A stretch of 63,187 nt of DNA, counting the filler, from Basidioascus undulatus (taxonomy: Eukaryota), in the NCBI GenBank assembly GCA_000826855.1. It is 8 parts of 8 records of this genome, joined end to end, with 100 filler letters (N's around TTAATTAATTAA, not from the genome) between each part and the next. Parts side by side here need not be neighbours in the genome. Positions count along the whole stretch, not along the records: positions 23,765 to 31,578 come from JTLS01001487.1; 7 more parts are not named here. One strand, written 5' to 3'. Position 1 is the stretch's first letter, and each line of letters begins with the position of its first letter. A program made the translations under genes and the position numbers. The notes below the pieces were generated by a model. The model saw only the letters and a program-made list of their open reading frames with translations. It was not told the origin of the DNA and searched no databases. Below are positions 2,690 to 59,171 of the stretch, piece by piece.

Positions 2690-4720
2690 ATGAGGCCCTC
2701 GACCGCCGTCGTTCTCGCGCTTTCCGCTGTCGGATCCGTCTCTGCTGCCCCCGGCCTCTTCGAGAGCGGCGAGGCGCACGGCAGCCACCGCAGCGACGAT
2801 GGCAACAAGGCTTCCTGGCGCGACCACATCAAGAACGTTGTTGTCCTCGTTCAGGAGAACCGGTAAGAAGGCAGTACCTCTCTTTAATTCTGTTAAATTG
2901 AAGCTGATGAGCCTGTGAATCAGCTCTTTCGACACCTTTGCTGGCGGTCTCACCTACAGCAATGACATCGACGGCCTCAATGGCAAGCAGCAGTACTGCA
3001 ACCCGGTGCGTACCGCTGCGCCTTCATAGTTGTCTCTTCTCAGAATTCTTTAATGACAAGTGTGTACAGGTAAACACCACCGACCCCTCTGCAGGCCAAG
3101 TCTGCGCCGAGCCTACGGCTCAGAACATCGCGCCCGAGGACCCGCCGCACGGCATCGCCGGCGTCAACTTCCAGATCCTCGAGACTTACCACCCCGACGA
3201 GGGCGCTGTCGATCAGAGCAAGGTGCCCGAGACGATGCACGGCTTCGTCACCGAGCAGCAGAGCGCGCACGGCTTCGCCGGCAACGTGACCCGCGCCGCT
3301 GAGGTCATTAACTACTACACGCCCGACCACATCCCCGTCTTCAACGCCATGGCATCCAACTATGTCCTCTTCGACCGTTGGTTCGCAGACGTTCCTGGCC
3401 CGACTAACCCCAACCGGTACTTCTTCTATCCAGGCATCGTGTCAAAGGCTCTTTCAAAGTCACTGACTATCCTCTGTTTCGCGTTCATACAGTGCTTACC
3501 TCACGTCCGGCACGTCGTACGGTCACGGTAAGAACGACGAGGCGTTCATGAACTCCACGATGCCCCAGCGCTCCATCTTCCAGCAGATGACCGAGAAGAA
3601 CATCACTTGTATGGCACAGCTCGCCCGTTTTGCTCTTTGCGGCTGCTTATTATTGGGTATGCAGGGATCAACTACCACAACGTCACCGGCTACCTGCCTG
3701 ACGCGCAGTTCTACGGTACGCACGTTGCAGTCAATTCGTATGCTAGACTATACGGCTTAAGGCTCTTACCACCTCATACAGAGTGGTCTGTCACGTCTGG
3801 CACTGCCCAGACGAACGTCAAGCACCTCGCCGACTTCTTTGCAGACGCCAAGGCTGGCACTCTTCCGCAGTTCACCTACATCAACCCGGAGGTAAGTCTA
3901 AATCGCGTGGCTTCGTATACACACTCTTGCAACTGACGCTAAACGCGTCTTCCTGCAGTGCTGCAGCTGGGACAGGTATGATGGGTATTCTTTTCAGTGA
4001 CATTTCGACATTGAGGTAACTGAGCTCTTTCATCTTTTCAGCTTCCACCCGCCCTCGTCTATGACCAATGGCGAGAAGTTCCTTAAGCTTATCTACGAGG
4101 CTGTCCGCAACGGCCCGCAATGGAACGAGACGCTCTTCGTCCTGACCTTCGACGAGCACGGCGTAAGTGCCAGTTTTTTTTTCGTTCTATACCCTTGATC
4201 TCATGAGGTCTTCTTGCTAACCTCTACCGACATCAGGGCTTCGCGGACCACGTACCTCCCCCCGTCAACGTACCTAACCCTGACGGCCTCACGTACACCG
4301 ACGTTGCGCCTGACGGCCAGCAGTACACTTTCGACTTCAAGCGTCTCGGCGTTCGGTGCGTAGTTGCCCCATGTCGGAGCATATAGACGTTTTCTAATGG
4401 CGGAACTGGCCGCAGTGTTCCCACCGTCGTTATGTCCCCCTGGGTTGACAAGGGTGTCATCGAGCACAAGGGCCATAACGGCGACGGAAAGGAGTACACT
4501 CACTCTTCTCTGCCTGCTTTCCTCGCCAAGGTACGCTCTATCATCCAGTCCACATCATGTGATTGCGTGGACGCTCGCTCACGCAACCTATCCCCAAAAG
4601 CTCTGGGACCTCGACAACCTTACTCCCCGCACTGCGTATGCGAGCACCTTCGAGCACCTCATCAAGGACAAGTTCCGCGACGACACGCCGGCGCAACTCC
4701 CCGAGCCCGTGGAGTTCTGA
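2690..4720 (+). CDS. Secreted phosphoesterase / non-specific phospholipase C family protein, multi-exon
   Basis: Signal peptide MRPSTAVVLALSAVGSVSA. Spliced family motifs: IKNVVVLVQENR/SFD, LFDRWFADVPGPTNPNR, TLFVLTFDEHG/GFADHVPPP, FDFKRLGVR/VPTVVMSPWV. Stop TGA at 4718-4720. Confidence 0.9.
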
Positions 4721-5963: not shown

Positions 5964-7824
5964 ATGTCGGCCCCCTTCGCCGCTACCAAGACCGTGATCG
6001 GTCTCAACGTCGGCGCCGGCTACGCGTCCATCGCTATTATCAACAACGTCCGTCTAGGGCCACCGCGTCTTTGCGTGGGAGTGTGTGGAGCTGAAACTGA
6101 CGTTTGGCGGTGGGGGTGGGCTGATGGCTTGGATCGGGAATGGAAATGTAGGAGGGCCTAGCGGACTGCATTGCGAACGAGGACGGCGAGCGCCAGATCG
6201 CCACGGCCATTGCATTCAACGGCGAGGAGATCGTGCGTCTTCGGTATTCCTTTCCTCTGGAGGATGATTTGGGAGCCTGATGGACCTTGGTTTGGGTGGA
6301 ACAGTACATTGGCAACCAGGCCAAGCCTCAATTGATCCGGAACCACAAGAACACTGTCCTCGGCTTCCGCAATCTGCTCGGCAAGAAGTGCGTTTCCTGC
6401 TGGTCTTCTTCGCACCTTGAACACACCCTCAACCCCCCTCCATCCGCCCCAGGTTCTCCTCCGACCTGCCCCAGCCCCTCCTCTCCACGCCCATCGTCGA
6501 CTCGTCCTCCTCCCCCGCCTTCAACCTCACCTTCTCCCCCTCCGAGGGCGCCGAGCCCACCGCGCAGACCTTGACCGCGCACGACATCGCCGTGCGCGTG
6601 CTCTCGTCCTTGCACCGCTCGGCAGTCGACTACCTCGGTGTGCCCGTAGACGGCGCGGTGATCGCCGTCCCGCACGAGTGGTCCGCCGCGGAGCGCGACG
6701 CTCTCCGCGCGGCGGCTAAGGACGCGGGCATCGCGGTGCTGGACCTGATCGACGACTGGTCTGCCGCGGCGAGCGCGTACGCGGACGTCCTCGCTGCGGA
6801 AGACCCGAACGTCCTCATCGTCGACATGGGCGAGTCTTCCACGGCCGTGACCGTCGTCGCCGCGCGCCAGGGGCTCTTCTCCCCGCTCGCGCACATCGCG
6901 GACCCGACCGTCGGTGGCGCGCAGCTTGACGAGCAGCTTCTCGCCCACTTCGCCAAGGAGTTCACCAAGAAGACCAAGGTCCCCCTCCCCGCCGCGCTTG
7001 CGGCCGACCTTCCCGAGGCCGACCGTCGCGCGCTCACCAAGCTCTTGCTTGCGACCGAGAGCACCAAGCGCACGCTCAGCGCGAGCAACAGCGCCAGCTG
7101 CGCCGTCGAGAGCTTGAAGGACGGCATCGACTTTTCCGCCCAGATCAACCGCCTGCGCTTCAACCTCCTTGGCAGCAAGGTGTTCAACAAGGTCGCTGAG
7201 CGTGCGAAGGAGGTCGTCAAGCAGGCTTCCCTCGAGCCGGAGCAGATCAACAAGGTTCGTTTCCTTACCCACTTTCACCTTTCGTTTCCCCCTCTCCCCT
7301 GGTCCCCTTTTCTTTCTCCCTCTTCCTCCATTCCTCTCCTCTGCCTTCCGAACCCTCCCACTCAACCCTCCTCCCCTTTACCGCAGGTCATCCTCGTCGG
7401 CGGTTCCTCCTCCCTCCCCGCTCTGCGCTCCGCGCTCGAGCCGCTCTTCCCCGAGTCGACCGACTTCCTGACCACCATCGACCCTGACCAAGCGATCGCG
7501 CGTGGGTCCGCGATCCAAGCGCGCCTTCTCTCTTCCCCGGAGCTGCCGGAGCTGCCCCCCGCCGCCGCAGCGCTTGACGTTGTCTCCACATCCGCGCCCA
7601 TCGGCCTCCGCCTGGGCGACAACTTCATTACGCTCGTCGAGCAGGACACGCCGCTGCCGGCGCGCCGCATCGTGCGCTTCGAGGGCGGCGCGGAGAAGGC
7701 CGCGAAGGAGGTCGCGCTGAGCGTGTGGGAGGGGAAGCACGAGGTGCAGGTTGAGGTGCCCGCGCCGCAGGAGAAGCCGGCGAAGACTGCGGAGGATGAG
7801 GAGGACGAGGACGAGGACGAGGAC
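5964..7824 (+). CDS. SSZ1: Hsp70-like ribosome-associated complex subunit Ssz1, 3'-truncated by contig end
   Basis: Spliced motifs CIANEDGERQIATAIAFNGEE, YIGNQAKPQL, LLLATESTKRTLSASNSASCAVESLKDGIDF and VILVGGSSSLP, plus an acidic insert. The atypical Hsp70 N-terminus matches Ssz1. Confidence 0.85.
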
Positions 7825-7924
7825 NNNNNNNNNNNNNNNNNNNNNNNNNNNNNNNNNNNNNNNNNNNNTTAATTAATTAANNNNNNNNNNNNNNNNNNNN
7901 NNNNNNNNNNNNNNNNNNNNNNNN
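7825..7924. other. Artificial contig-joining linker (N44-TTAATTAATTAA-N44)
   Basis: An identical 100-bp spacer with stops in all six frames occurs 7 times in the window. Confidence 0.99.
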
Positions 7925-13828: not shown

Positions 13829-15745
13829 ATGTCCGTGTCCAAAGCCGCCCTCTCTGCGCTCAACCTCCCGCTCTCCCTCCCGCCCGCCGCGCGCGGCGTC
13901 GCGCTCCCCGATCCCCATGGGTTCCAGAAGGACCTCTTCAAGGGACTGCGGGACGCGTATTGGTCCGATGATGAGGTCAGTGCCTCTTCTCCGCCGTCGG
14001 GCGGTCCCTCTGTCCACTTGGTGGCGCAGACGCGAAGAGAGCAGAGCAGCTGACGACACGCGTTTCGGGACCGCTCACAGGAGGATCGCGACTGCCCGCT
14101 CTGCCTCGAGGAGATGGACATTAGCGACCTCAACTTCAAGCCGTGTCCGTGTGGGTACCAGGTCAGTCTTTTTCCATCCTGACCGCGTAGTGCGCGCAGG
14201 CGCTACGCTTGTGCGTTCGTAGCGCGTTCGGTGCCGGACTGACCCTTGCCCTCGTCCCCTCCCTCGCTCTCCCTTTCCCTTCCATGGCCCCTTCGCTATT
14301 CCTCCGCATCATTATCACCGCGCACATCTTCACTTCTCGACGTGGTTCACGTCGCCGACCACCTACACGCTCGCCCATCACGCGACCGCCCGTTCACGTC
14401 GATCGCGTTCATCGCCGCACGCACAGATTTGCCGCTTCTGCTGGCATCACATAAAGGAGAACCTCAACCGGCGCTGCCCTGCCTGCCGTCGCGAATACAC
14501 GGACGCCGGGGCAGAGTTCAAGCCCGTCAGCGCGGAGGAGTGCGTTCCTTCGGTTTCCAACTGCTCCGTACGGCCCTGAAACGCTTATTAATCCCTCTTG
14601 CCGCTTTCTCCACAGCGTCAAGCGGCTAGACCGGCAGAAGAAGCAGAAGGAGCGTGAGAAGCGCGAGCTCGAAACTCTCGGCCGGACCCGTTTGGCGAGC
14701 TTGCGTGTCATCCAGCGCAACGTCGTGTATGTCGTCGGCTGGCCGGATAGGGTGACGGACGAGGTGCGTCTTCTCTAAAACGTCATTTCGGTCAAAGGGT
14801 CAGGCCTGACATGCATTCTGGTGGACCAGATCCTCCCACTTCTACGCGCGAACGACTACTTCGGGCAGTACGGTCGAATCGCAAAGATCACGATCGCGAA
14901 ACGCCCGTCGTCCGCGCACTCCGTGTCGAAGGACCCGACCGTTGGTGTTTACGTGACGTATCACCGCAAGGAGGACGCGGCGAAGGCGATCACCGCTGTG
15001 GACGGCACGCCGCTCGGCGACGGACGCGGTGCGCTCCGCGCGAGCTTCGGCACGTCGCGGTACTGCACGAGCTATCTGCGCAACCAGGCGTGCATGGATC
15101 CGACGTGTCAAGGCTTGCACGAACCGGGCGAAGAAGCGGATAGCTTCACGAAGGAGGACATGGCGACGAGGTGGGTGTGGTGCGGTCGTGCGACGCGGGC
15201 GTTGCAGCAAGCTGATCGACTGGACGCTGTGCAGGAAACACCCGATCAAGGACGATCATCTTCGCCTTGCTCGTCGTCCGCCTCCCACCGCGAGCGCAAC
15301 TGCGTCACCCGTCATATCCGCTGCTCGGAGGCACGAAGAAGCGGAATGTACGTTGTCCTTCCTTACGCCGTTTCTCGATCCTTTCGTTGCTCACGGTGCT
15401 CGAATCGACTGCAGCTTCTGCTCTTCCGCGCACAGCATCATGGGCGAAGCCCGGATCCGGTCCGCCCGCCACGGTCCCCTTCCCGACTCCTCCCCCTCCT
15501 CCGACGCAACCGTCGCAGAGCAGGCGGCGCGAGCCCAAGTCGCGTGCACAGCCCGCCGTGCAGCCCACCGCACAGCCTGCGTTCCGGCCCAGAGCGACGC
15601 CGCAGCCAGAGCCGCAACGTCGGTCCGCCGCGGCAGCGCGCAAGGCGTCAGTGGAGGAGATCACGCCGACGAGTTCCGCAGTGCCCTCACCTGTCGTCTC
15701 CAGCGCTGCTCCTGCTCCCGCTCCTGCACGTACGCCTTGAGCGTA
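13829..15745 (+). CDS. NOT4: CCR4-NOT E3 ubiquitin ligase Not4/Mot2 (RING + RRM + C3H), 3'-truncated
   Basis: C4C4 RING CPLCLEEMDISDLNFKPCPCGYQ/ICRFCWHHIKENLNRRCPACRREY, then LRVIQRNVVYVVG, RRM DYFGQYGRIAKI, and RASFGTSRYCTSYLRNQACMDPTCQGLHE. Confidence 0.93.
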
Positions 15746-21122: not shown

Positions 21123-23664
21123 TCAGAAGACAAAGTATCCCTTCGCGAGGGGCAACGTCTCCGCGGGCGGCGCGTCGCACAGCTCGCCGTCGGCCGTCAC
21201 CGCGTATGTCTCGGGGTCGACGCGCATCTGCGGCGTCGAGTCGTTGTGCTTCATGTCGCGCTTGCTCACCGTCCGGCAGCCGCGGACGCCGAGCGAGCGC
21301 TTGCGCAGGCCGTAGGAGGCGATCACGCCTGTCCCGCCATCATCGAGATCAACTTCGCTGCTCGTAAGGAAGGAGGTGGAATGTATGGACGGACTGGAGT
21401 CGATCGAGACCTGCGAAACGAAGTTGTACGAGTTGAGCGCTGCCGCGCCGGGGTAGCCGCCGAACATGGGCGCAGAAACGATCGGCTGGATAGTCGGGAT
21501 GGATGCGTTCGCGTCACCGACCTGTACAAGCACAGTTCCAGCTGAAGCATTAGCCTTTGTAGCAATGCAGCAAAGAACGGCAGCGTACACCCGCCCACGC
21601 AATCACTCCGCCCTTGATAACGTTCTCGGGCTTGACGCCGAAGTTCTCGGGCTTCCAGAGCACGAGGTCGGCGAGTTTGCCCTTGACAACGTCCCCGACG
21701 ATGTGCGCGAACCCATGCGTGATGGCCCTGCGTCATTAGGCCTGAAGTTATTCTCACAGTCCCCGCGCCCTGATCCACTGCAAGAAGCGGCGCGCACGGG
21801 TTGATGGCTGTCCTTGTCGAAGTTAGCGACCCGCTTTCTCGATGGGAGGAGCAAAGAAGAGATAGGAGCGCGACGCACTATACTTCGAAACATACCGCTT
21901 CACGCGGAAGTTGTCGTTCGTGGTGTCGTGCGGGGCGAGTGGCCCGCGCACGCTGCGCATCTTGTCTGCCGTGCGCCAGGTGCGCGAGACGACCTCGCCG
22001 ATACGGCCCTGTTGGGGTGCCGTTCAAATGAGATTCAGATGTCATTTGAGATCATCAGTTGCATACCATTGCTTGACTGTCAGATGAGATCATGGAGATC
22101 GCGCCGGTGTCTGTCCGAGGGATCTCTAACAGTCCGCACAGCATAGGGATTGCGAGAAAGCTAATAGCGCACCGTGCAAGACGTCCTCAGCCGCCACCGT
22201 CTCCGCTCGGATGCGCGAGTCGGCAAAAGCGACGTCTGTGCATGTGCGTGCACATCGCGTAAGCCACCAGGTCCATCACTCGTTCGCGAGCCGCACGCAC
22301 CTTCCGGGATCGACTTGTCGAGGTGATGGCAGACCATGAGCATCTGCACAGATTGGGCACGCGTCAGTGCCCACAGCTACCAGTGTGCAAGCTCCGCCCC
22401 TCACGTCCAGGTGCTCGTCGAGCGTGTTGCGCGTGAACGGCCGCGTCGGGTTGGTCGACGAGGGGAGGACGTTCTGCTGCTCGCAGACGACCTGCAGTTC
22501 CGCACATCCGCAAGGTCAGCACCGTATCCCTCGCGCCGGCTCTGCGCTGAGCAGGGCCACGCACGATGATATCCGGCGCGTGCCCGCCGCCGGCGCCCTC
22601 CGTGTGGTACGTGTGGATCGTGCGGCCTTTGAATGCGGCGATGGTGCCTGCAGATAAATTGCGTTGCAGCCCCTCCCATCAGCAGCAGCAAAACGCGAAA
22701 GGACGGGGGATGCGAAACGAAGACGCACTCTCTACGAACCCGCTCTCGTTCAGCGTGTCCGTATGGATGTTGACCTGCACGTCGTACTTGTCCGCGAGGG
22801 TCAAGCAGCTGTCGATCGCCGCCGGGGTGGATCCCCAGTCCTGCGCTCCTCCGCCTCGTGAGAACCCGCTCCCCCTCCTCACTCTTTCCCTACACAAGCA
22901 CCTCATGCAGCTTCAGCCCCGCCGCGCCCGCCTTGACGATGTCCTCCAGTCCCCTCGGGCCAGAGCTGTGCCGCACCGCCCTTCAGCCAACCGTGCGCCC
23001 CTAAGGAGCGGGAGAACGGGATGTGGCGGGGATGGAAGGCGAAAGGGGGAGGGAACGAAGACGCACTCGTTCCCCTTTCCCGTGAACGCAAAGTTCATCG
23101 GGATCCCATCCGTTGCAGCAAACATGTTGTGCAGGTGGTTCTTCCCCGGCGTGCACGTCGTCGCGGCCGTCCCCGCCGCGGGGCCGCCCGTCCCGCCGCC
23201 GATGAGGGTCGTGATGCCGCTTGCCATTGCCTGTTGCACCCCCTCAGTCCTGTCAGCATCGCCCCCCACTCCCCTCAAACAAACGAAGCGGGCAAGAGGA
23301 AGGAAGAAGGAGGAAGGAATGAGGAAGAGGAGGAAGAAAAAAGAACCGCACCTCCTTCCACAGCTCCGGACAGATAAAGTGCACGTGCGCGTCGATAGCG
23401 CCCGCAGTGACGATCTTGCCCTCCCCTGCAATGACCTCTGTGTTGACGCCGACGACGAGCGCCGGGTCCACGCCGTCCATCACGTCCGGGTTGCCCGCCT
23501 TGCCGATCCCCGCGATGTAGCCCTCTTTGATGCCGATATCCGCCTGACCCGGGTTGGAGACGCATCGTTAGCCGTTAGTTGGGGAATTGGGGGGAGGGAA
23601 AGGCAGGGGAGGAGAGGGAGGGAGGGAGAAGGAAGCGCACCGTCTGGACTATAGCTTTGACGCT
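21123..23664 (-). CDS. URE1: Urease (alpha-subunit region of the fused fungal urease), 5'-truncated
   Basis: [86 protein letters not shown]-terminus [12 protein letters not shown]...[10 protein letters not shown]. Confidence 0.97.
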
Positions 23665-23764: not shown

Positions 23765-24002
23765 CCTAGACACCTTGCCTCTCCGCCGCCCCTTCGTCCA
23801 TCCCTCGTTCTTTCACACCTCTACCACACCACTTAGCCACTTCTCCTTTGTGCTTGATTTCCTCCTGTGATGTATACCCGCCGCAACATCCCTTCCCCTA
23901 CCTTTTTACTTTGTTGAACCCCACACCTTCTCCTTCTTACTTTCGCTCGTCTGCTGGGTCTGAATGCACGCACGTTCTATCTGCCGCAGTTGACTGGCTC
24001 GC
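23765..24002 (+). repeat. Inverted copy of the PDB1 stop codon + 3'UTR (partner at 26395-26632)
   Basis: CCTAGACACCTTGCCTCTCCGCCGCCCC... is the reverse complement of 26632 downward. The first ~80 nt are identical and the rest diverges progressively. Confidence 0.92.
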
Positions 24003-24257
24003 AACCAAGTGGCTCACAGGCCTCTCTACGCAGCGCTCTGCACATCTTTGCCTGCACAGAGAGTTGTTCTGCCGTTGGAGTCAAGTGTGCAACAGTCCCA
24101 GCCACTTGGTTCCTTGTTCGGTGTTCCAAGGAATCCCAAGCTCAACAGAGGACAGGACGAGAGGGGGAAAAACACAAGGCCATTAGTGCCATTAGTCATT
24201 GAGTAAGGCTTGCCTGGGTCCGAAGGGGAGCAAAAGCAACAGAAAAGCATCAGATCT

Positions 24258-24329
24258 TTCCCCGTCCGGGAATCGAACCCGGGGCTGGGCGGTGAGAACA
24301 CCCGATGTTAGCCACTACACCAACGAGGA
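24258..24329 (-). tRNA. tRNA-Glu(CTC), intronless
   Basis: Reverse complement TCCTCGTTGGTGTAGTGGCTAACATCGGGTGTTCTCACCGCCCAGCCCCGGGTTCGATTCCCGGACGGGGAA folds as a cloverleaf with anticodon CTC. Confidence 0.93.
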
Positions 24330-24837
24330 CATGTATTTGTACTGCAATGCGCGATTCAGCAGCATTTCAAGTTGCAACGACTCCTTTCCCTTAAAACCGG
24401 AGCATCCCATGTCAAATGCTGGTCCTGAACTCTCTGTAACACACATTGCGGCTTTGACCACTCAATACCTTCTGACGCAGGTCGACGACGTTCGGACGCA
24501 GCGATGAATCCCACAATCAACATAGCGGAGCTTTGAGGGTTTCGTTGCTATACACCTCAGGGTCTGCGCCTGTGTTGGTAGTGCATTCAGATCCCAAGAC
24601 TCGTGACATGCTAGCACAGCGTCAGTGTGGCAGGAGCCGGGCCGAGAGGTTGAATGGGCTGGTATGACGAACTAAACGAACAGGCACCGAGAGAAGGCTG
24701 CATAGATGCTTGTTCAACGGACCACCGCTTCTCCCTTAAATGAGTCTCGCCCTCGTCTCGTCTGCCCCTCCTTCATCCTCATCCCACTCTCCATCTTCTA
24801 TATCGTGCAGCGCTAGTCGCCATAATAATACTCTCAA

Positions 24838-26116
24838 ATGCCTTCCATTCGTCATTCTCTTCTGGCGCTGGCCGCCGCCTCTGCCTTCACCGTCCCCCTT
24901 GTCCGCGCCGACGGCTTTATCAACCGCATCGAGGCCGACGGTGTTGGGTATGACGGCTACGACGCTTGGCACGACGCTGAGCTGCGTGATGGAGTACGCA
25001 AAATTGTGCGGGCGAAGGAAACCACCTACCCTGGTACGTGCTTTTACCTGGAGCGGGGTAAGCGAACGTGCAGAGGTATTGATCTTTCCAGCACACAGTG
25101 TCGAACCTGCGTAGCCAGGACATGAACTGCGGGTTGGGGAACGGCGACTCTCCGGCTGCGCTGGTCGCGGACGTGACTGCCGGCTCCAACATCACTGTTC
25201 AATGGGGTCCGGCAATGGGCAACTTTACTTACCCCGACGATGAGGTGCGTCTTCTTCTTCTCCTCCCGGCATTGTTTTTCCATTTACAGACGTCTGTCTC
25301 AGGATGGCCCCATAATGATGTGTCCGTCTGCTCTACCACTATGAGTATACATCACTACCCCTGCGAGGCTGACATGTTGTTGATGAATTAGATGCTGCTG
25401 ACTGTCACGGTGACTGCACGACATTCACGCCGTCTGGCGCGACGTGGGTCAAGCTGTACGACGTTGGTTTGCTGCCCGATGGTCAGTTCGCCAACACTAA
25501 GCTCGTGAACGGATCTTGGTCGTGAGTCTCCTTTTCTTCCTTGTTCTCCATGCTCTGCAGCTGAGCGATGGTCAATTCTTTGCGCCGTACAGCTTCCCCG
25601 TGCCCGATTCCCTCGCACCCGGTCAATACCTCTTCCAATTCACCATCCTTGGCCTCAACATTGCCAACATTCCTCACTTCTACCCTCAAGTACGTCTTTC
25701 ATAGTCCCCTTTGTTGTCTCCACGGTGACGTTTATCCGTTCCGTCTGCCGGTGCCAGTGTGCTCAATTCAACGTCCTCGGGGGCGGATCCACTAACATCA
25801 CTTCTCTTCCTCTGGTCGACATGACCGAGGTGTACCTCAACGCGAACGGCGTGTACGTCGACTTGTGGAACGTACAGGAGCACATCGACACCGGGAAGTG
25901 GAGCACCGTATGTTTCCTTTCAGCCCCTACCGACTTCCTTCCTCTCAGACTGAACGTCGCTGTTCTCCGCAGTACGACATTCCCGGACCGGCCATTCTCG
26001 ACGCTCTCCTTAAGTCTGGGGCCGCGTCCGCGTCCGCCCCTGCCGCGCCCGCCGCTAAGAACTACTGGGTCTCTGCAGCCTCCGCGTGGAGCAACCGCGT
26101 CCGCCGGTGGGATTGA
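24838..26116 (+). CDS. Secreted AA9 (GH61) LPMO-fold protein lacking the histidine brace
   Basis: Signal peptide ending VRA, then DGFINRI. AA9 framework: PVSNLRSQDMNC, VTAGSNITVQW, GPIMMYAADCHGDCTTF, WVKL, VPDSLAPGQYLF, HFYPQCAQFNVLGGG, YDIPGP. It splices to an uninterrupted ORF over 7 exons. Confidence 0.85.
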
Positions 26117-26394
26117 TCGTGATGCTCCGTTCTTTCGTTGTTCTTCCTTCCCCTTCGTTTTCCTATCAGTATTTCGCCCTTATTTCGCAGCAGCGCTGCC
26201 GGAGATGTGGGGATGAGTCTCGTCACGGCACAGCATACCTTGTTATCTTTCATGTCGGAGCGACCGGAACTCGTCTATGCATTTATGGACCCGCATTTTT
26301 ATGACGTATTAATTGCATGGGCACTGAAAGTGAAGTGCAAAAGATCTAGAGGCCGGATGCTGAGATCGCGAAAGACGATCGACAAGAGCAGCCA

Positions 26395-26632
26395 GCGAGC
26401 GAGACGATTGCGGCAGAGGGAACATGCGTGCATTCAGACCCAGCAGACGAGCGAAATGAAAAGGTGAAGGTGTGGCGGTTCAAAAAAGCAAAAAGGCAGG
26501 AGAAGGGATGTTGCGGCGGGTATACATCACAGGAGAAATCAAGCACAAAGGGAGAAGTGGCTAAGTGGTGTGGTAGAGGTGTGAAAGAACGAGGGATGGA
26601 CGAAGGGGCGGCGGAGAGGCAAGGTGTCTAGG
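26395..26632 (-). repeat. PDB1 3'UTR, partner arm of the inverted repeat
   Basis: See 23765-24002. Confidence 0.92.
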
Positions 26633-28616
26633 AGCGGTAGAGCGCACGCTTGGCGACCTTGGTCACGACGCCGGTGTCCGGGAAGGAGAAGTCCTCCATG
26701 TTCTTGGCGTACTATGTAGGCACGAGGGCAGGGTGCGTCAGTAGGTGTTGGCTGATGTGCGACGTGATGAGGGAAAGGGGAAGGGCACGCACGGGCGTCG
26801 GGAGGTCGGCACCGGTAACACGCTCGATCGGCGCGTCAAGGTAGTCCCACGCGTCGGACTCTGCGGAAAATTGACGGGATGTCAACGGCGTGCGTCCCGA
26901 ACCGAGCATGTAGACGAGCCAAAGTACATACCGACGATCTGAGCGCAAATCTCGGAACCAACACCGAACATCGGGAAGCCACCCTCAACGGTCACCAGAC
27001 TGTTTTCCAATCGCGCCCGTCCCCTCTATCAGCTCCGCTGCCCAACCAAACGCAACTAGCAAAGGGACTGCCCACGCACCGGTTCGTCTTCTTGACGGAT
27101 TTGATGATGGTCTCGATGTCGAGCGGGCGGATGGAGCGGAGGTTGATGACCTCGGCCTCGACGCCCTCCTCCTTCTTGAGGATCTCGGCGGCCTCGAGCG
27201 AGTGCTGGACCATCTTGGAGTGCGCGACGAGCGTGATGTCCTTGCCCTCGCGCTCGACCTTGGCCTTGCCGATGGGGAGCAAGAACTCGTCCGACATTGC
27301 CTCGGCCGACATCGGGAACGAGACACCATACATGATCTCGTTCTCGAGGAAGACGACGGGGTTGGGGTCGCGGATGGCGGCCTGTCAGGGGAGGCAAATA
27401 GGTTCAGAGGGTGACATGCAATACAAATGTGGATATGATGAGAAGCACACCTTCAGCAGACCCTTGCAGTCCTCAGCAGAGTAGGGCGAGATGACCTTCA
27501 GACCAGGGACGGAGCCGTACCACGCCGCGTAGTCCTGGGAGTGCTGCGCGGCGACACCGGCGGCGGCACCGTTGGGGCCACGGAAGACGATGGGACAGGG
27601 GACGTTACCACCGGACATCTGTTCCGCGGCGCTCTCAAAAATATCAGTACACCCTTCTCACTCCAACCCGAGCCAAACGCACGTAGTAGGTCTTGCCGCC
27701 AGAGTTGACGATCTGGTCGATGGCCTGCACTCCCCGCATCGTTTGTCAGCAAAGACGCCGGTGAATCTGGGGAAAAGGAACTGGGGCCAACGCACCTGCA
27801 TGGCAAAGTTCCAGGTCATGAACTCGCAAATGGGCCGGAGGCCGGCGAGGGCCGCGCCGACGGCGAGACCGGCGAAGCCAGACTCGGTGATGGGCGTGTC
27901 GACGACGCGCTTCTCGCCGAACTTGTCCAGCAGGCCCTTGGTGACCTGTTTGTGTGTGTCCAAGGATCATGATCAGTTCCGCGCCGCAAGGAACGGAGGG
28001 AAGGGGGTAGCGAGGGGAGAAGGGAGAAAGGAGACAGGACAGACCTTGTAGGCACCGTTGTAGCGCGCAACCTCCTCGCCCATGATGAAGACGGTTTCGT
28101 CCCGAAGCATCTCCTCCTCCATCGCGGCGTTCAGGGCCTCACGGACGGTCATCTGCCGTGAGAGGGGGAGGAGCATGTGTCAGCAGGGCGAGATGAGAAG
28201 ACGCTAGGCCATCTTGCGAGAGACCGTGTAGATTTCCCAGTTTTGGAGCAGCATTTTTATGCGCATACACGCAAGCAGCACCATACCATGGTGCCCAAAC
28301 CTCCAAAAAGCGAGAACCATCCCATCCGACCGTCTTCTTCCTACGCCTTGCGCGTCTTCCCCTAACGCCTTCGTTCCCAACCTCGTCTTTTCCCCACATA
28401 GTCCTCCAACTGCTTCCCAACACGCGTTGTTCCCCACTCCATTTGTGGAATACAAGCCCAACTCACCGTGTGCTGTCCCTGCTCGCTCGCCCAGCGCTTC
28501 TGCGCGGGGACACCAGCGAGCCTAGACGGGGTCGCCAGGGGCGCAACGGTGCGCGCGATGGCGGCGCGGGAGAGCGCGCGCGCGGCGGGGGTCGCGAGGC
28601 GGGAGAGGGGGGCCAT
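26628..28616 (-). CDS. PDB1: Pyruvate dehydrogenase E1 beta subunit, mitochondrial
   Basis: Presequence [15 protein letters not shown], then [83 protein letters not shown]. Confidence 0.97.
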
Positions 28617-29855
28617 GGCGTAACGATGGGCGGGGAGGGCGAGGGCGAGGAGGAGGATGAGAAGGCAAGCGGCGAAGACAGACCAGACAGCAGCGCGATT
28701 GCAGCACAAGCTGGGGCGGCACGCCGGCGGGCTGGGGACAGGCCGACCCCGCGTGGCAGGCGATAACTATCGATCTGTACTCTACATTTTTACTACGCTT
28801 CTGGCACACGGCCGGCCGCGGACTCCAGCTGTTTTTTTTTCACTTTTTTCACTCACGCACTGTACACTGCACTCGTGATAAGCATGCTCGATTGCTCTTT
28901 AACTACATATTCTGCAAAACCAGCATACAGATCGACATGCGATGAGTCTGCAACGACGATAACGGCACTCAGGCACGGCGCCGCCGAAAGTTCTCGCTGC
29001 TCGGCCCGGCCTGCCCAAAGTCAAGGAAGTCTTCACAACGGATGCCTGCATATTCCTCCTCCAGAGCACACAGCGCAACCGGAGTAGGCGGAAACGATTT
29101 ATAACCCTCCTTCGAATGTGGTTACAGCTCTCCGGCGAGGCATTGATACAAACTGAGGGGGAGATCTGTAGACATCGGTTAGGCACGGCGAGAGTGCACC
29201 GGTGCACGGACTGCCCCCGAGAAAGTCGTATGTACGCAGATGCAGGCAGACTTCTACATATATACTGTGAGGTCTTTATAAAAACAGACAATGAGCATCA
29301 AAGGTCGAGCGATGCGATAGGTCTGGAAGGCAAAGCCAACGAGGGACGGCTTACGAGCTCCTGATCGACCGACTTGCGTTGGCAGAGGAGCAAGCAATTC
29401 GAGCGACACACTCAAGCCTGAGTACCAAGATGAGCAGGTGAGCGACCGCTACTCCATCCACTGTCAATGAGTCAACGAGACCACGACCGCATCTGCAGGT
29501 GCAGCCGCGACATGCCGACGTGGGCACGGGGCGACTGCGCGACAGGACCAAGGAAAATGACCTTGTCATGCCCGAGAACGGGTTGGGGTCGAAAAGGTCA
29601 CATGTCGAAGTATGCCACGCACAGGCGCATGAGCGACATAGCAGAAAGGGCAGAATATTGAGATCAGCGATATCGAAAACCCGTGCGGGACGGGGTCGTG
29701 TAGAGACGAAGTCCCGGACGCGCGCGATGTCCCATCTAGTCCGCCCAACGTTCCCCAGGATACTCCTCTCAACCCCATCCCAGTAGCCCGAAATGAAAGT
29801 CCATGCGCGCTCAAGCTCGCCCCCCTGCTGCCTGGCCCGCACCGAGCGCCTCCCC

Positions 29856-30951
29856 TCACCAGAACCTCCACCAGAGGAGGACGAGGACGAGGAAGACGAT
29901 GGCGCCGACGGGGGCCCACTTGCGGATGAGCGCGTCGATGTTGACCTGCCGCGCGGTGCGCCGGTACTTGAGCGACTCGTCCCGTAGGGACGTGGAGAGG
30001 TGCGACATCCCTGGAATCGCCATGGTTGGTTATGTCAATGACTGATCTGGGAATAAGAAAGAAGGCAGGACGGGGCGGGATAGGAAGAGGGGGAGTGGAA
30101 AAGGGGAGGAGCGGGTGGGGAGGTGAAGGACGCACGGTCGAGCGAGTCCCCACGCCACAGCAAGTCCTCCATGTTCTTGGTCATGATGCGCGTCACGTCC
30201 TGCAGGTCCTCGTTGAGCTTGTCGAGGTGCCCGCCGCCCGCGCTCGCGCTGGCCGCCGCCGTGCGCGGATCCGCATACAGGCGGGTCGTCTTGTGGATGA
30301 AGGAGTCTGTTATGTCCCATACCATTCGACATGAGTTTTCCCGAATCGAAAGAGAGATAGAGAGAAAGGAGGAGGCAAGACGCACCGAAAGGCTGACACG
30401 CATACGGTCGCCGATACGAGCCCAGCTCCTTGCCATGCGAGCGATCAAACTCTTTGCTGAGCTCGTCGAGGTAGGAAAACGCGAGTTTTCGCGGGTAGGA
30501 GCGCTCGGCGATGCAGAGGTAGCACACGCCTTCGGAGATGAGGTAGCTGTTGTGCCATCGCTCTGGCTCAGTGCTGCAGAGGGGGGGATGGGGAGAGTGA
30601 GAAGGGGGTGGGGCGCACTGGAGAGTGTAGTTTCCTGATTCGATGGAGCAGCGGGGTTCGGAATTGGGCGAGAGGCGGCGGAGGACGAGCTTGGACTGCT
30701 GCTTCTGCTCTTTGAGGCTGCTCTCCGTCTGTGTCCCCAATCACCCCACAGGACCTTCTCAGCCTCCCATTCTATCCCCCTACGAACTTCGCCCCGACTG
30801 ACCGCCTCGTCGTCGATGGAAGCTACGAGCGGGAGGGCGTCTGCCCAGCCCGAGCCAGATCGATGTCAGTCCGGAGGCTCTGAGCTCCTGAGTGCGTGGA
30901 TGCTTTCGCGAGCGCACCGGATACGCGGGAGATGGATGTGGAGAGTGTCAT
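29856..30951 (-). CDS. SEC22: R-SNARE Sec22 (longin + SNARE + TM)
   Basis: DALPLVASIDDE, SEPRCSIESG, CIAERSYPRKLAFSYLDELSKEF, LDKLNEDLQDVTRIMTKNMEDLLWRGDSLD, C-terminal TM ending WWRFW*. Confidence 0.95.
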
Positions 30952-31215
30952 TCTGTCTGTCCGTCACTTCAAGAAGCACAAGGTCGTGCGGAAGATAGTT
31001 TAGAGTGATGATCGCCGTCGTTCAGCCTCGATGCTGGGCAGCGACACGCTGTCGCGGAACAGACGCGACTCACGTGTCCATCCGCGGATGCCCAGGCCCC
31101 GCACGCGGACCGGTCCTAATGAACGCCCGGGAGCCGGCGGAAGCATCGAGTTCGCAGTGCTTCAACTTGGTTCCCGACCATCACCACCCTCCCACACACG
31201 CATAGCAACACGATA

Positions 31216-31578
31216 ATGTCGACGACAGGCTCAGCGCTCGACGTGGAGCACCAGCTCGTGTTCTATGCGTCTTACCACTCCAACCCGACCAACGTGAGGA
31301 TCCACCAGGTCTTTGTCCCGCTCATCCTCTGGTCCGTTCACCTTCCTTCCAGCTTCCATTCCGAGTGGGCACACTGACAAATCGAACCAAAACCCCAGGT
31401 CATGGCAAGGCGTGCTCTCCCTCCTCCCGCCCATAGCCTCCACGCAGCTCCCCCTCGGGCTCCAGCTCGACTGGGCTCTCCTCTGGTCGATCGCCTACCA
31501 AGTCTACTACTTCCTCCTCGCACCCCTCCTCGCCACGCGCATCCCCTACGCCATCCACGTCCGCACCTATTCCAAGCC
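31216..31578 (+). CDS. MPO1: Mpo1-like (DUF962) ER membrane dioxygenase, 3'-truncated
   Basis: LDVEHQLVFYASYHSNPTNVRIHQVFVPLILW is the family N-terminal His motif, followed by the TM segment AYQVYYFLL. Confidence 0.8.
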
Positions 31579-45669: not shown

Positions 45670-47391
<1,722 letters not shown>

Positions 47392-47491
47392 NNNNNNNNN
47401 NNNNNNNNNNNNNNNNNNNNNNNNNNNNNNNNNNNTTAATTAATTAANNNNNNNNNNNNNNNNNNNNNNNNNNNNNNNNNNNNNNNNNNNN
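47392..47491. other. Artificial contig-joining linker
   Basis: N44-TTAATTAATTAA-N44. Confidence 0.99.
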
Positions 47492-48370: not shown

Positions 48371-48855
48371 GTATGGATATTTCTGTTTTTTTTGTTAGAT
48401 GTTAGAATAATGAGCACAAGGAGTCGCGGAGTGTTGTGCTTAAGAAGAGAGAGGGAGGAAGGGAGGAAGGCGAGTTGGGCAGGCGTGGGAGTTTGTTTGG
48501 TGGCCGTTATCTAATCTGGCCTGATCCGAAGTTGGTATTCTTTCAAGTCTGGCCATCATTTGACTGGAAACCCCGTCCTCCAAACAAAAAATAAATATTT
48601 TCAACGATTGTGGCAACGCTTTGGGGGGCGCCAGGCTTACGCCGCAGCAGGCCAATGCACAGGGGCCGAGGCACACATTTGATACAGCGGCGGGGCGGCA
48701 TTGGCACGGGCGCGCGAGAGCGCGCACTCGCGAAGACGTAAGTCGCTTCCATTCTCTTTCTTGACTTTCGACTCTCACCCTTGCCGCCAGCACACACTTT
48801 TCCTCTTTCTATTCAGCTCGGTTCTGCGGTCAGAGCACTCTACGCTCTATTCATC

Positions 48856-50445
48856 ATGACTTCAGCCGATCTCCGGCAGCGGACGACGGCGACGAGCACG
48901 GCCAGCAGTAGCCAGCCGACGCCCTCCGCCTTGTCCTCGTCCGACTCGCTCGCGTCCCTCTCAAGCCACACGTCGCTCGAGGACAGCGCAACGCTCGTGG
49001 GACGGGAACGCAAGAAGCCTCCTCCCGGACAGGACCATGATGACTTTTACTGGGTCACCCAGGAGGAGCCTCATCGCTCGCGGTGTAAGGCCATCATGGC
49101 CGCCCACCCAGAGGTGCACTTGCACTTCCTTTTCAAATCGCTGATCTCACCTGATATTTGATGTGTTACTCTCTCTGATCCGTCAGGTCAGGAAGCTCAT
49201 CGGCCCCGTACCTTGGACGTCGATCCCGATCCTGCTCGTCGTCGCCCTCCAGCTATGCGTCGCCGCGGCGCTTTCAAACACCCATCCGCTCTCTTGGCAG
49301 TTCCTCCTCGCGGCCTATGCGATCGGCGGAACTGCGAACCAGAACCTCTTCCTTGCCATTCACGAGGTCACCCACAACCTCGTGTTTCGCAACCGCACCG
49401 CCAACAAGGTGCTCGCGATCGTGTCCAACTTCCCCGTCGGCATTCCTTTTGCCGCTACGTTCAAGGTGAGTGGGTAGGACGTTCCTTTGTTCGCGTTTGG
49501 AGATATCTGGGTGGCCTGGTCTGTGGCGCCTGTTTTCGGTGGTGGGCGGTCGGCGTCGCTGTCGCCACATCAGCTGTGCCCAGCCTGGTCATCGCTCATT
49601 TACAGTTACGCCTCGGTCCCTGCCACAACCTGCTCTGACCCACCGCACCGTTCCCAGGGCTACCACCACGAGCACCACCGCTATCTTGGCGAGGACGGGA
49701 TGGACACGGACCTTCCGTCCCGGCTCGAGCTCATCTGCCTGAAAACCGCCATCGGGAAAGTGTTCTTCTGGTCCGTCCCTCCACCCTCCACCCGACCCCG
49801 ACGCCCTCTTACCTTCCTCCTCCCTCTCCAGCATCTTCCAGATCTTCTTCTACGCGCTCCGCCCCGGCTTCGTCAAGCCCAAGGCGCCGACGCCCTTCGT
49901 CCTGACCAACATCGCCGTCCAGCTCGTATTCGACTTTTTCTTCGTGCGCGCCTTCGGTTGGTACAGCTTCTTCTACTTCATCGAGAGCAGCTTCTTCGCG
50001 GGCAGCCTGCACCCGTGCGCGGGGCACTTCATCGCCGAGCACTACCTCTTCGACGGCCTCGGCCAGGAGACGTATTCGTACTACGGCCCGCTCAACTGGC
50101 TCACCTGGAACGTGCGTCCTCCCGACCTCCCTCTCTGGTCACCCACCGTCCCGAAACTGATCATCTGGCATGCGGGGCTTCCTCTGCATGCAGGTTGGCT
50201 ACCACAACGAGCACCACGACTTCCCTGCGGTTGCGTGGCGGAACCTGCCGCGCGTGCGCGCGCTCGCGCCCGAGTTCTACGAGAACCTCGGCCAGCACAA
50301 GTCCTGGCCGGGCGTCATCTACCGCTTCATCTTCGAGACCGACGTCGGCATGTTCTCGCGCGCCAAGCGCAGCCCGCCGCCCCACCGCGCCGCGTGGTCC
50401 GGCCAGCCGGGCGAGGGCGCGAGCTTGGACGGCGCGAACGAGTAG
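48856..50445 (+). CDS. DES1: Sphingolipid delta-4 desaturase
   Basis: DFYWVTQEEPHRSRCKAIMAAHPE, three His boxes HEVTHN, YHHEHH and YHNEHHDFP, and LHPCAGHFIAEHY. Confidence 0.95.
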
Positions 50446-53041: not shown

Positions 53042-53845
53042 CTGCGTTCCTTTTCCAAAGAGCCAGGCCCGGAACATACATTCTGGAAATATCAAACTCT
53101 TGCTGGACAGCATTTATGAAAGCATGATGAACAGACACCCTCTCTTTACCCACTTCGTGCCCCGGCGTCACAATGGTTCGGTGGGAGGCAGAGCAAACAC
53201 TGCCACTCCCTGCAGTAAATGGTGTTCGACTTCCATGTTTGTAATACTTATCGTACACAGTGGACTGGCGGACGTGTGGTACTGCTGGTTGTGTCACAGT
53301 CAGTCACTGACAGAAGGCTGCCAGGAATATGTTGTCCTTCAGGAATATGCCTCGGCTTGCTCCCGAGCCCTGCATCCCTGTACACACCGCATAATTCCAA
53401 AATAGTACAGACGACCTCTCGGATCCCACTAGATCTGTTTATGAAGTACTAGTGCACAGTCGAAGTGCACTTTCAAGTTTGTCGGCGTTTGTAGCCAAGC
53501 GAGTTCATATCGGCAGCGAGTCGAGGGAGTGCCCATTTCGACTTGCTTCCGCCCGCCTTCGACGTTCGACACTCACTTGCTTCTCTGTCCGCTGGGGATC
53601 GTCAAGGCCTACACCGCACCGCACTGCACCGCAACGCACCGCACGCCCTACTGTACGTTTTGGCCCCTGCGCAATGCGTCAAAACGCAGACGAGAAGATA
53701 TCTGATTTCAATGCAGGAGCAGACCTCTAAAGCCCGTACTTTCGCGCACAAACTGCGAGGCGACCCAGACGATAGTGCGTTCCCCTTTCCCCTCGTTCCC
53801 CGCCGTGTCCTCGGTGCCTTCCGCTCACTGAAGTCTGTTGTCTAC

Positions 53846-55294
53846 AATGTGCTGTAACTCTGGTACTTTTGATGGAACAGTGGACGTCGAGGCGGACACG
53901 CTCGACTGGGGCGACGCGCACGACGACGAAGTCCTGCACGCGTCCACCAAGGCCTGGCAGCAGCAGCAGTCGGTCCTCACCACAACTGCCACCACCACCG
54001 CCGCCGTGGACGAAGACGCGGATGTCATTTCCCTAGACGGCTTTGACGAGCCCGCGCCTGCCCTCGCGCAGGCGCCTGAGCCCCAGCCCGCGCCCAAGCC
54101 GCAGCCGATGAAGGAGCAGCTCAACGCGGCGCTCATCGCGAGCATCACCGCCGACGGTCCGCCCCTGCCCGCGGGCTGGATCGTCAAGGTCAGCCGCGAT
54201 GGCGAGGCGTACTTTTACAACCGTGCCTTGAAGAAGAGCACGTGGGACCGGCCGGGCCCGGAGGACGCGGGGGAGGATGTGCAGGAGAAGCAGAAGGCGA
54301 AGGAGGAGGCGCAGGCGCGCGAGGAGAGGTACAGGGATGGGCAGGACAGGGCCGTGGGCAGGGACGACCGCGTCAACGACCGCCCGTCCAGCTCGGCTGT
54401 TGCTGCCACGAAGGTGCGTGCTCTTCACGGCTTCTCGCCCTTAGCGGTTCGGTTTCTTGCTGACATGCATACCAACTAACCACCACTAGCGCGACCGCTC
54501 TCCTGCGCCCACTGGTCCCGCGTCAGACGACCAGAAGCGCCGGCGCACATTGCGCTACGACGAGTCGTCGCCTTCCGCGCCGGTCCACACCTCGCGCCTC
54601 GCGCTGCTGGACGGGCGCGCTGCCGCGGCTCCCGCACCCCGTAAGGCGCCGCATCCACACCTCCCCCTTCTCTCACTGCCCCTGCCCCCTCCACGCGCGG
54701 ACGGCTCAACCGTCGTGCGCCGCGCGCTCCGTGCGCTTGTCGGACAGCCGCCGCGCGCGCTTCCCCTGCCCCACAGGTCCACCCCGCCCGCGCGGCGCTT
54801 GTACAGCAGCCGTCGCAGCACCAACACTCACCGCCGCGGCCCCCCCCGCCCCGCTTGACGAGCGCCAACGTGCTTCCGCCCGCGGGCCCGCGTAACGGGG
54901 GCGGCGACGCCCGCTCACCGCCTACAGGACCGCGCAATCGGTCGCCGCCTCACCAGCGTCCGCCGCGCAGGCGGGACTCTGACGTCGACGACGACCGCCG
55001 CATCAAGGACAGGGAGGGGGAGAGGGAGAGGGAAAGGGGGCGCGAGCGCGACAAGGACGTGATGGGTGCGCCCCCGCCGTTCAGGCCTGAACTGCCTCGC
55101 CAGCGTTTCGGAACCGCGCTGGGCAAGCGCAAGCCCGAGAGGATGCCCACCGCCCTTGGCGTCGACAGCAACTACGCGGATCTGGGGGAGCGGCGGAGGA
55201 AGTGGGGCGAGCCGCAGGGGATCGCGGAGAAGGAGGAGGAGGAGAGGAAGGAGCGGGAGAAGAGGGAGGAGGACGAGGAGGAGATCGGAAGAGC
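53846..55294 (+). CDS. WW-domain protein with Arg/Pro/Glu-rich C-terminal region, 3'-truncated
   Basis: WW domain PLPAGWIVKVSRDGEAYFYNRALKKSTWDRP at ~54160-54255. The exact start is uncertain. Confidence 0.7.
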
Positions 55295-58600: not shown

Positions 58601-59171
58601 GTCGGGTTCGCTCTCGGCGTAGCGGATGAGATAGATGTAGGACAGCTTCTTGATCTGCACCCTCCAATCCACAGCGCTCAGAATGCGAGATATTGCTAAC
58701 AAATGAACAGAACAACGCACCTCCGGGTTAGAAGATGGGACGAGCTTGACGACCGATGAGAAGACGCTCGAGACGTCCCTTCCCTTGGAGATCATGGCGA
58801 GTAGGCGCTTCAACGCATCGAGCACATCGCGGTCATGTCTTGACTCAAGCTTCGCGCTGAGATCCTTGACCTGCGAACAAACGATTTCAGCACCTTAGCA
58901 TCCATCTGGGTGTGTCCCAGGAATGAGAAGACGCACCCGATCATCGCTCGAGTCAAAGAAGCTCGCGCCCCCTCCCAGTCCTCCGCTCAACCCCAGATCT
59001 CTGCACAAGCATTCCAAAACAGCCATTCAGCTATACTCACACAGCAGAGATCGTTGCAGGCATGCTGTGTTGCAGGACGTACCTAGCGGACTCCTGGATG
59101 TTCTCCTGCAACCTCTGCTTGAGGCGGTTCGCGGTACTCGTCAGCGACGAGAGCGCGTTGGCGCCTGACAT
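55650..59171 (-). CDS. APL6: AP-3 adaptor complex beta subunit
   Basis: LDALKRLLAMISKGRDVS, IKKLSYIYLIRYAESEPDLALLSINSFQKDLNDPNPLIRAQALR, DRLDLLHKHYRSLCRMLVDADEWAQ, ARYDLDYDVRDRARF, and an acidic hinge. Confidence 0.93.

Follow-up and report, generated by a model that had tools for sequence, protein, structure and literature searches.

Loss of the copper-holding histidine brace has already been recorded within the AA9 family of LPMOs. Members without LPMO activity, brace or copper, which keep carbohydrate-binding features, are described in a passage of PMC7949027, and a passage of PMC10354095 likewise places on record AA9 members without brace and copper but with such features; AA9 homologues that start with Arg were, according to a passage of PMC10486138, excluded before the analysis reported there. 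The statement in the preliminary description of this locus that natural Arg-type AA9s have been described is thus backed by passages in all three papers (PMC10486138; PMC7949027; PMC10354095). Two further groups come close in other respects. X325/Bim1 proteins keep the copper histidine brace and have a role in copper uptake (as given in a passage of PMC7924993), and the AA9-X282 proteins of Agaricomycetes are presented in a passage of PMC10354095 as having poor or no activity on cellulose, a C-terminal extension and a suspected non-degradative role. A motif look-up in the supplementary files of PMC8615602 and PMC10486138, which contain almost no sequences, returned nothing. In the full-text literature searched, which misses most subscription papers, neither an Asp- or Glu-type AA9 nor the term “Arg-AA9” was found. 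To our knowledge, all AA9 proteins so far described without the brace are of the Arg type.

The locus compared here with these systems belongs to Basidioascus undulatus (GCA_000826855.1) and was studied in a stretch of 63,187 nucleotides (the window), composed of eight parts from eight records joined with N filler, where adjacent parts need not be genome neighbours; the part at positions 23,765 to 31,578 is JTLS01001487.1 and carries the AA9-like gene. Reading of the sequence and scripted assembly place this gene at 24838-26116 on the plus strand, with seven exons, a coding sequence of 882 nt that stays in frame and a product of 293 aa. The window sequence gives its start as ATG at 24838 and its stop as TGA at 26114-26116, and in the ORF list this ATG is the first after an in-frame TAA (24826-24828), the frame opening at 24829. 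Its six introns (65, 58, 70, 71, 68 and 65 nt) are all of the GT..AG type. Exon 1 (24838..25033, 196 nt) holds the signal peptide and the mature start D-G-F-I-N-R-I-E-A-D-G, with Asp25 at the place of His1; exon 2 (25099..25244, 146 nt) contains Cys76 and closes on the acid run D112-D113-E114, with Glu114 at the place of the second brace His; and exon 3 (25303..25321) is a micro-exon of 19 nt that encodes D-G-P-I-M-M together with the first base of a Tyr codon. They are followed by exon 4 (25392..25521, 130 nt), with Cys125 and Cys129 in A-D-C-H-G-D-C; exon 5 (25593..25689, 97 nt), with Asn186, His192 and Tyr194; exon 6 (25758..25907, 150 nt), which opens with Cys197 (C-A-Q-F-N-V) and encodes a C-terminal portion of the domain that is divergent; and exon 7 (25973..26116, 144 nt with the stop), which encodes Y-D-I-P-G-P and then a tail. 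This C-terminal tail, 40 aa from 25994, is rich in Ala, Ser and Pro and basic at its end (pI 10.3). X325 proteins are GPI-anchored, whereas the C-terminus of the AA9-like protein is charged and not hydrophobic, so that no GPI signal is predicted in it.

The gene is placed among housekeeping genes in a gene-dense region of the joined window. Domain matches (the N-terminal domain of Urease_alpha plus two pieces of Amidohydro_1) identify a urease gene at 21553-23567 on the minus strand, which, in window order, runs away from the AA9-like gene, and both genes seem to have a short upstream region in common; on the other side, a pyruvate-dehydrogenase-E1-beta-like gene (Transket_pyr, Transketolase_C; 26995-28179, minus strand) converges on the AA9-like gene's 3' end. 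Elsewhere in the window, domains of a phosphoesterase (2911-3528), an Hsp70 (6421-7869), a RING finger (14223-14576), a Longin SNARE (30033-30740), a MYST acetyltransferase (45673-47443), a sphingolipid desaturase (48742-49158), a WW protein (53832-54476) and an Adaptin_N protein (56760-58894) were recognized, and among window ORFs of at least 90-110 aa no further gene for a carbohydrate-active or redox-partner protein was found. The codon bias of the AA9-like gene resembles that of its housekeeping neighbours: its GC3 is 0.72, compared with values of 0.64-0.88 for six coding pieces nearby and a GC of 0.51 for its own introns.

Three sequencing runs (X1, X2 and X3) contain the stretch, none of them recorded as RNA; X2 and X3 come from one sample, the assembly itself may have been built from X1 and X2, and the runs do not stand for independent strains. 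X1 and X2 each show, over 24700-26300, one genomic contig with the intron-containing form only, and their sole difference from the window is a C>T at 25263 in intron 2, one in 1601 bases. In X3, which comprises 15.7 million letters in 36,764 records, a contig of 2651 nt (record 3) covers all exons with 0 mismatches and skips all six predicted introns at their exact borders; its match begins at 24777, which gives a 5' untranslated region of at least 24777..24837 on the plus strand. Because of these six exact skips, the size of X3, the retention of the introns in the genome runs and the presence of a second spliced copy (see below), X3 is taken to be transcript-derived, although its record label, a guess, says otherwise (“DNA?”). 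If this holds, the AA9-like gene is transcribed and spliced as predicted, its expression having been seen once. The predicted splicing is matched by the contig at all six joints, including both sides of the micro-exon (the skips of 58 and 70 nt), and none of the X1, X2 and X3 contigs on 24700-26300 has a different joint by which a His would be restored. The possibility that reads might carry CAC at 24910 likewise fell away, as all three runs have GAC there. The 2651-nt contig extends about 1.5 kb beyond 26300 and probably merges the transcript of the AA9-like gene with that of the converging pyruvate-dehydrogenase-E1-beta-like gene.

Kinship with AA9 was assessed exon by exon, both against profiles and against solved structures. 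The AA9 profile PF03443 (207 positions; whole-protein cut-off of 27.8 bits) was matched by exon 2 over profile positions 38-69 (22.5 bits, E 1.1e-4), by exon 4 over 85-124 (17.0 bits, E 5.8e-3) and by exon 5 over 132-165 (16.6 bits, E 7.8e-3), each of these single-exon scores lying below the whole-protein cut-off. The matches concern three of six exon pieces and are colinear with the profile, and their order and fitting spacing argue that they are not due to chance; exons 1, 6 and 7 had no Pfam match at E<=10. Among solved structures, exon 5 matched 5ufv_A (E 6e-5) and 5nns_A (HiLPMO9B; E 3.4e-3), and exon 4 matched 5nns_A (E 7e-4), where A-D-C-H-G-D-C stands opposite A-N-C-G-G-D-C with both Cys matched. 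The matches of exon 2 were weak, with its Cys matched (2vtc_A, that is Cel61B, E 0.02; 9bjs_A, E 0.039), while no PDB entry was matched by exon 7 or by the mature part of exon 1, and the matches of exon 6 were weak, unrelated and in no case AA9. In a protein atlas, exon 2 lay nearest an AA9 cluster (0.82), which we treat as a lead only; exon 1 fell near LptD-like clusters (0.85), which were dismissed as unrelated. The assignment of the gene to the AA9 family, made beforehand from motifs, was borne out by the colinear PF03443 matches and the alignments to solved AA9 structures, and on this evidence the protein is an AA9 homologue, although an unusually divergent one: its N-terminal 41 and C-terminal ~100 residues are unrecognizable alone, and about half of it (exons 1, 6 and 7) has no AA9 match.

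What was retained in this protein is mainly the scaffold. Cys76, Cys125 and Cys129 align to Cys of 9bjs_A or 5nns_A, so that three of the four Cys are matched directly, and Cys197 follows F-Y-P-Q as in the AA9 family motif; the four presumably form the two disulfide pairs of AA9. The motifs G-P-I-x-x-Y-x-A-x-C, P-G-Q-Y-L, F-Y-P-x-C and Y-x-I-P-G-P are kept as well. The predicted signal peptide (24838..24909, plus strand; 24 aa ending in V-R-A) has a basic start, a hydrophobic core of 12 residues, Pro at -5, Val at -3 and Ala at -1, directly ahead of Asp25. From the (-3,-1) rule we infer that Asp25 is the mature N-terminus; a weaker alternative cleavage (A-S-A, after residue 16) would add eight residues, still without a His. 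The start D-G-F-I-N-R-I-E-A-D-G has the G2/G11 pattern in common with the N-terminus of Cel61B (H-G-Q-V-Q-N-F-T-I-N-G).

The copper site, on the other hand, has been replaced at four of five positions. Asp25 (GAC, 24910-24912) stands in place of His1, and Glu114 (GAG, 25242-25244) in place of the His of H-x-G-P, the sequence reading E-D-G-P. In exon 5, I-L-G-L-N-I-A-N-I-P-H-F-Y-P-Q lies opposite L-I-A-L-H-Q-A-N-N-P-Q-F-Y-P-E of a solved AA9, which sets Asn186 (AAC, 25657-25659) against the second-sphere His (..LN.. vs ..LH..); His192 (CAC, 25675-25677) falls opposite the Gln in the alignment to 5ufv_A (HFY vs QFY), and Tyr194 (TAC, 25681), which falls on the Q-F-Y Tyr of both 5ufv_A and 5nns_A, is the retained axial Tyr. 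Asp, Glu, Asn and His have thus taken over four positions, and two of three second-sphere residues are lost. The region of Glu114, E-D-G-P-I-M-M-Y-A-A-D-C, was read against H-x-G-P-[IV]-x-x-Y-x-A-x-C, which we take to be the AA9 motif. From this motif and the spacing of 11 residues to Cys125 we infer that Glu114 is the equivalent of the second brace His, and the splice that joins Glu114 to the D-G-P of the micro-exon is seen in the X3 contig. The codons named in the preliminary description (24910, 25242, 25657, 25675 and the Tyr at 25681) are all present, its four substitutions with a retained Tyr hold (Asn, His and Tyr by PDB alignment, Asp by the (-3,-1) rule and Glu by motif and spacing), and translation, alignments and the X3 contig agree with its account of an intact signal peptide, cysteines and splice sites. 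As both brace positions are without His, copper would not be held in the LPMO manner; the AA9-like protein would then not be a canonical copper LPMO, and LPMO-type copper binding, and with it oxidative cleavage of polysaccharides, would have been lost.

The reading that we favour, with a probability of roughly 60%, is that the gene encodes a secreted, divergent AA9-family protein without copper brace, likely acting as a non-redox binder of glycans or cell walls. In such a protein the two disulfide pairs, the axial Tyr and the Y-x-I-P-G-P platform region would maintain the scaffold, and the change of His1 to Asp and of the second His to Glu would remove LPMO-type copper and, consequently, oxidative cleavage. 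The flat face of the fold, where copper sat, may now bear a strongly acidic patch, and it is through this face that a glycan or cell-wall surface would putatively be bound; the brace-less Arg-AA9 proteins offer an analogue for such a binding role. The composition of the mature domain points in the same direction, since its 229 aa include 21 Asp and 6 Glu (pI 4.2), Glu114 belongs to a D-D-E-D run, and of the 25 residues that begin with Asp25, 7 are Asp and 2 are Glu; this suggests a broad patch of negative charge on the surface by which true LPMOs bind their substrate. The same features could also be expected of a decoy or interaction partner, that is, a look-alike without activity whose binding target would be a protein (for example an LPMO inhibitor made by a host or competitor, or a redox partner) and not a glycan: the scaffold is kept, the active face is remodelled and charged, and secretion is predicted. 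Nevertheless, no sign of any partner was seen, the housekeeping neighbours give no hint of one, and we hold this explanation to be very unlikely.

The acidic residues might alternatively form a new metal site, where the amine and carboxylate of Asp1, Glu114, His192, Tyr194 and the D-D-E-D run would bind Fe, Mn, Zn, Ca or Ni for another kind of catalysis or for metal capture. Three of the four replacements are indeed classical metal ligands next to a retained axial Tyr, the replaced positions surround copper in solved AA9s according to what is known of the family, and an acid cluster is nearby; the short divergent upstream region shared with urease, a nickel enzyme, could be added to these arguments, but it may be a coincidence. 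The composition of the protein weakens this case, because Asp or Glu at site positions is unsurprising in so acidic a domain (21 Asp in 229 residues), and once His1 was lost the remaining site residues would have been free to change; moreover, no relatives were found in which conservation of these residues could be seen. A new metal site consequently seems quite improbable to us, and the more specific proposal of a carboxylate-brace class, namely a non-copper metal centre on the LPMO scaffold shared at least with an expressed paralogue, appears highly doubtful. For such a site, which the preliminary description considered as one outcome of a re-specialisation, no computed result speaks beyond the identity of the residues, and the results as a whole favour neither re-specialisation nor drift of these residues after copper was lost.

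The search for relatives was extensive in library size. In word-indexed searches of 5.8 billion proteins, exon 1 gave 251 candidates, none at E<=0.01, exon 2 gave 11 candidates, none at E<=0.1, and exon 5 extended by 8 intron-encoded residues gave no candidate sharing three words. An exhaustive HMMER search with exon 1 against 1.84 billion representatives returned three matches at E<=0.001. One of them (P0001), an adhesin from bacteria, contains eight Cna_B repeats, each resembling W-x-D-A-E-x-x-D-G-x-R, and another (P0002) is a long repetitive bacterial protein; both were judged to be chance, and from these two the same was judged of all three, including P0003. Residues 42-54 of the AA9-like protein (24961-24999; D-A-W-H-D-A-E-L-R-D-G-V-R) resemble the Cna_B motif, a similarity judged to be chance and inflated by the eight repeats. 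A metagenome scan with exon 2 left one locus (L001) from 598 pattern matches, which was rejected as a chance match of 10 residues without an AA9 gene, and tblastn of the joined model found no second AA9-like copy in the window. With short exon pieces as queries and an uncertain coverage of fungi in the libraries, these results give a weak indication that no close relative is to be seen, and the gene is not termed an “orphan” here.

A relative does seem to exist in the same organism. Record 4 of X3, a spliced contig of 1314 nt, matches the AA9-like gene in patches at 25158-25220 (63 nt, 9 differences) and 25593-25649 (57 nt, 8 differences), with about 86% nucleotide identity over these two listed patches; a third patch, at about 25848-25886 in exon 6, is indicated by a joint 25649->25848 together with a loose end behind 25886. 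The spliced length between the first two patches is 173 nt in both record 4 and the AA9-like gene, and on account of this common spacing, with X3 taken as transcript-derived, record 4 is read as an expressed paralogue located elsewhere in the genome. Its loose ends encode C-G-L-G-N-N-N-T-P-A and K-T-Q-K-W-S-T-Y-A-M, and its matches end just before F-T-Y-P-D-D-E and G-L-N...H-F-Y, that is, before the site residues.

Such a paralogue could carry the function, and it leads to the explanation that the AA9-like gene is a relic, a duplicated AA9 gene whose function has been lost and which drifts, still transcribed and not yet broken. The extreme divergence of the protein (17-23 bits per matching exon, half of it unrecognized), the failure to find relatives in very large libraries and the loss of four of five site residues would all fit this explanation. 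Conversely, the 882-nt frame is open across seven exons, 12 of 12 splice signals and the 19-nt micro-exon are intact, splicing is accurate, neither the signal peptide nor any of the four structural Cys has been lost, and a coding-type GC3 contrasts with the introns; divergence of this extent without any frame-breaking change is hard to reconcile with neutrality. Altogether, the intact seven-exon frame, the correct splicing, the neighbour-like codon bias and the four conserved Cys argue against plain decay, and we consider a relic unlikely.

These results carry limited weight, as they concern one gene of one organism for which no relatives are known. Even so, annotation that scores each AA9 hit as an oxidative LPMO overstates the fungal oxidative toolkit, and the AA9-like protein would be a counterexample to it. 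A second brace-less type, chemically opposite to the first (acidic vs basic) and encoded by a gene seen in spliced form and read here as transcribed, would also offer a further way to learn what the LPMO fold is used for once copper is absent, and if a metal or a cationic polymer were indeed bound at the acidic site, this would represent a new use of the LPMO scaffold.

Regarding the systems with which we began, the canonical AA9 LPMOs (5nns_A, 5ufv_A, 2vtc_A and 2yet_A, the latter being TaAA9A according to a passage of PMC7924993) resemble the AA9-like protein in the colinear profile match, the Cys pattern, the motifs and a signal peptide right before the domain, and differ from it in that His1, the second His, the second-sphere His and Gln are all replaced here. 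X325/Bim1 is similar as an LPMO-type fold in non-cleavage use, to judge from the passage cited above, a use which is proposed here for the AA9-like protein; it is, however, a separate family and not AA9, and it has the brace, whereas the AA9-like protein is without His at either brace position. The AA9-X282 proteins differ in keeping a working histidine brace, as a passage of PMC10354095 indicates, and their Thr/Ser/Pro-rich belt of ~30 aa has no evident counterpart in the Ala/Ser/Pro-rich, basic-ended tail found here, the two having been compared by description and not by alignment. The closest counterpart is the Arg-AA9 LsAA9B of Lentinus similis, which is likewise an AA9-family protein, secreted (as predicted here for ours) and naturally deprived of the histidine brace, and which passages of PMC7949027 and PMC10354095 describe as lacking LPMO activity and copper while keeping carbohydrate-binding features. 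In LsAA9B the residues of the site region are reported to be splayed apart. The two proteins are set apart by position 1, which is Asp here and Arg there, and by the further replacement here of the second His (by Glu), the second-sphere His and Gln. The entries of LsAA9B, which we take to be 6RS6-6RS9, are absent from the PDB matches listed for the exon pieces, the nearest of which are ordinary LPMOs. Brace-less AA9 proteins being already known (the Arg type, LsAA9B), the acidic Asp/Glu form of Basidioascus undulatus would best be filed as a new variant of them.
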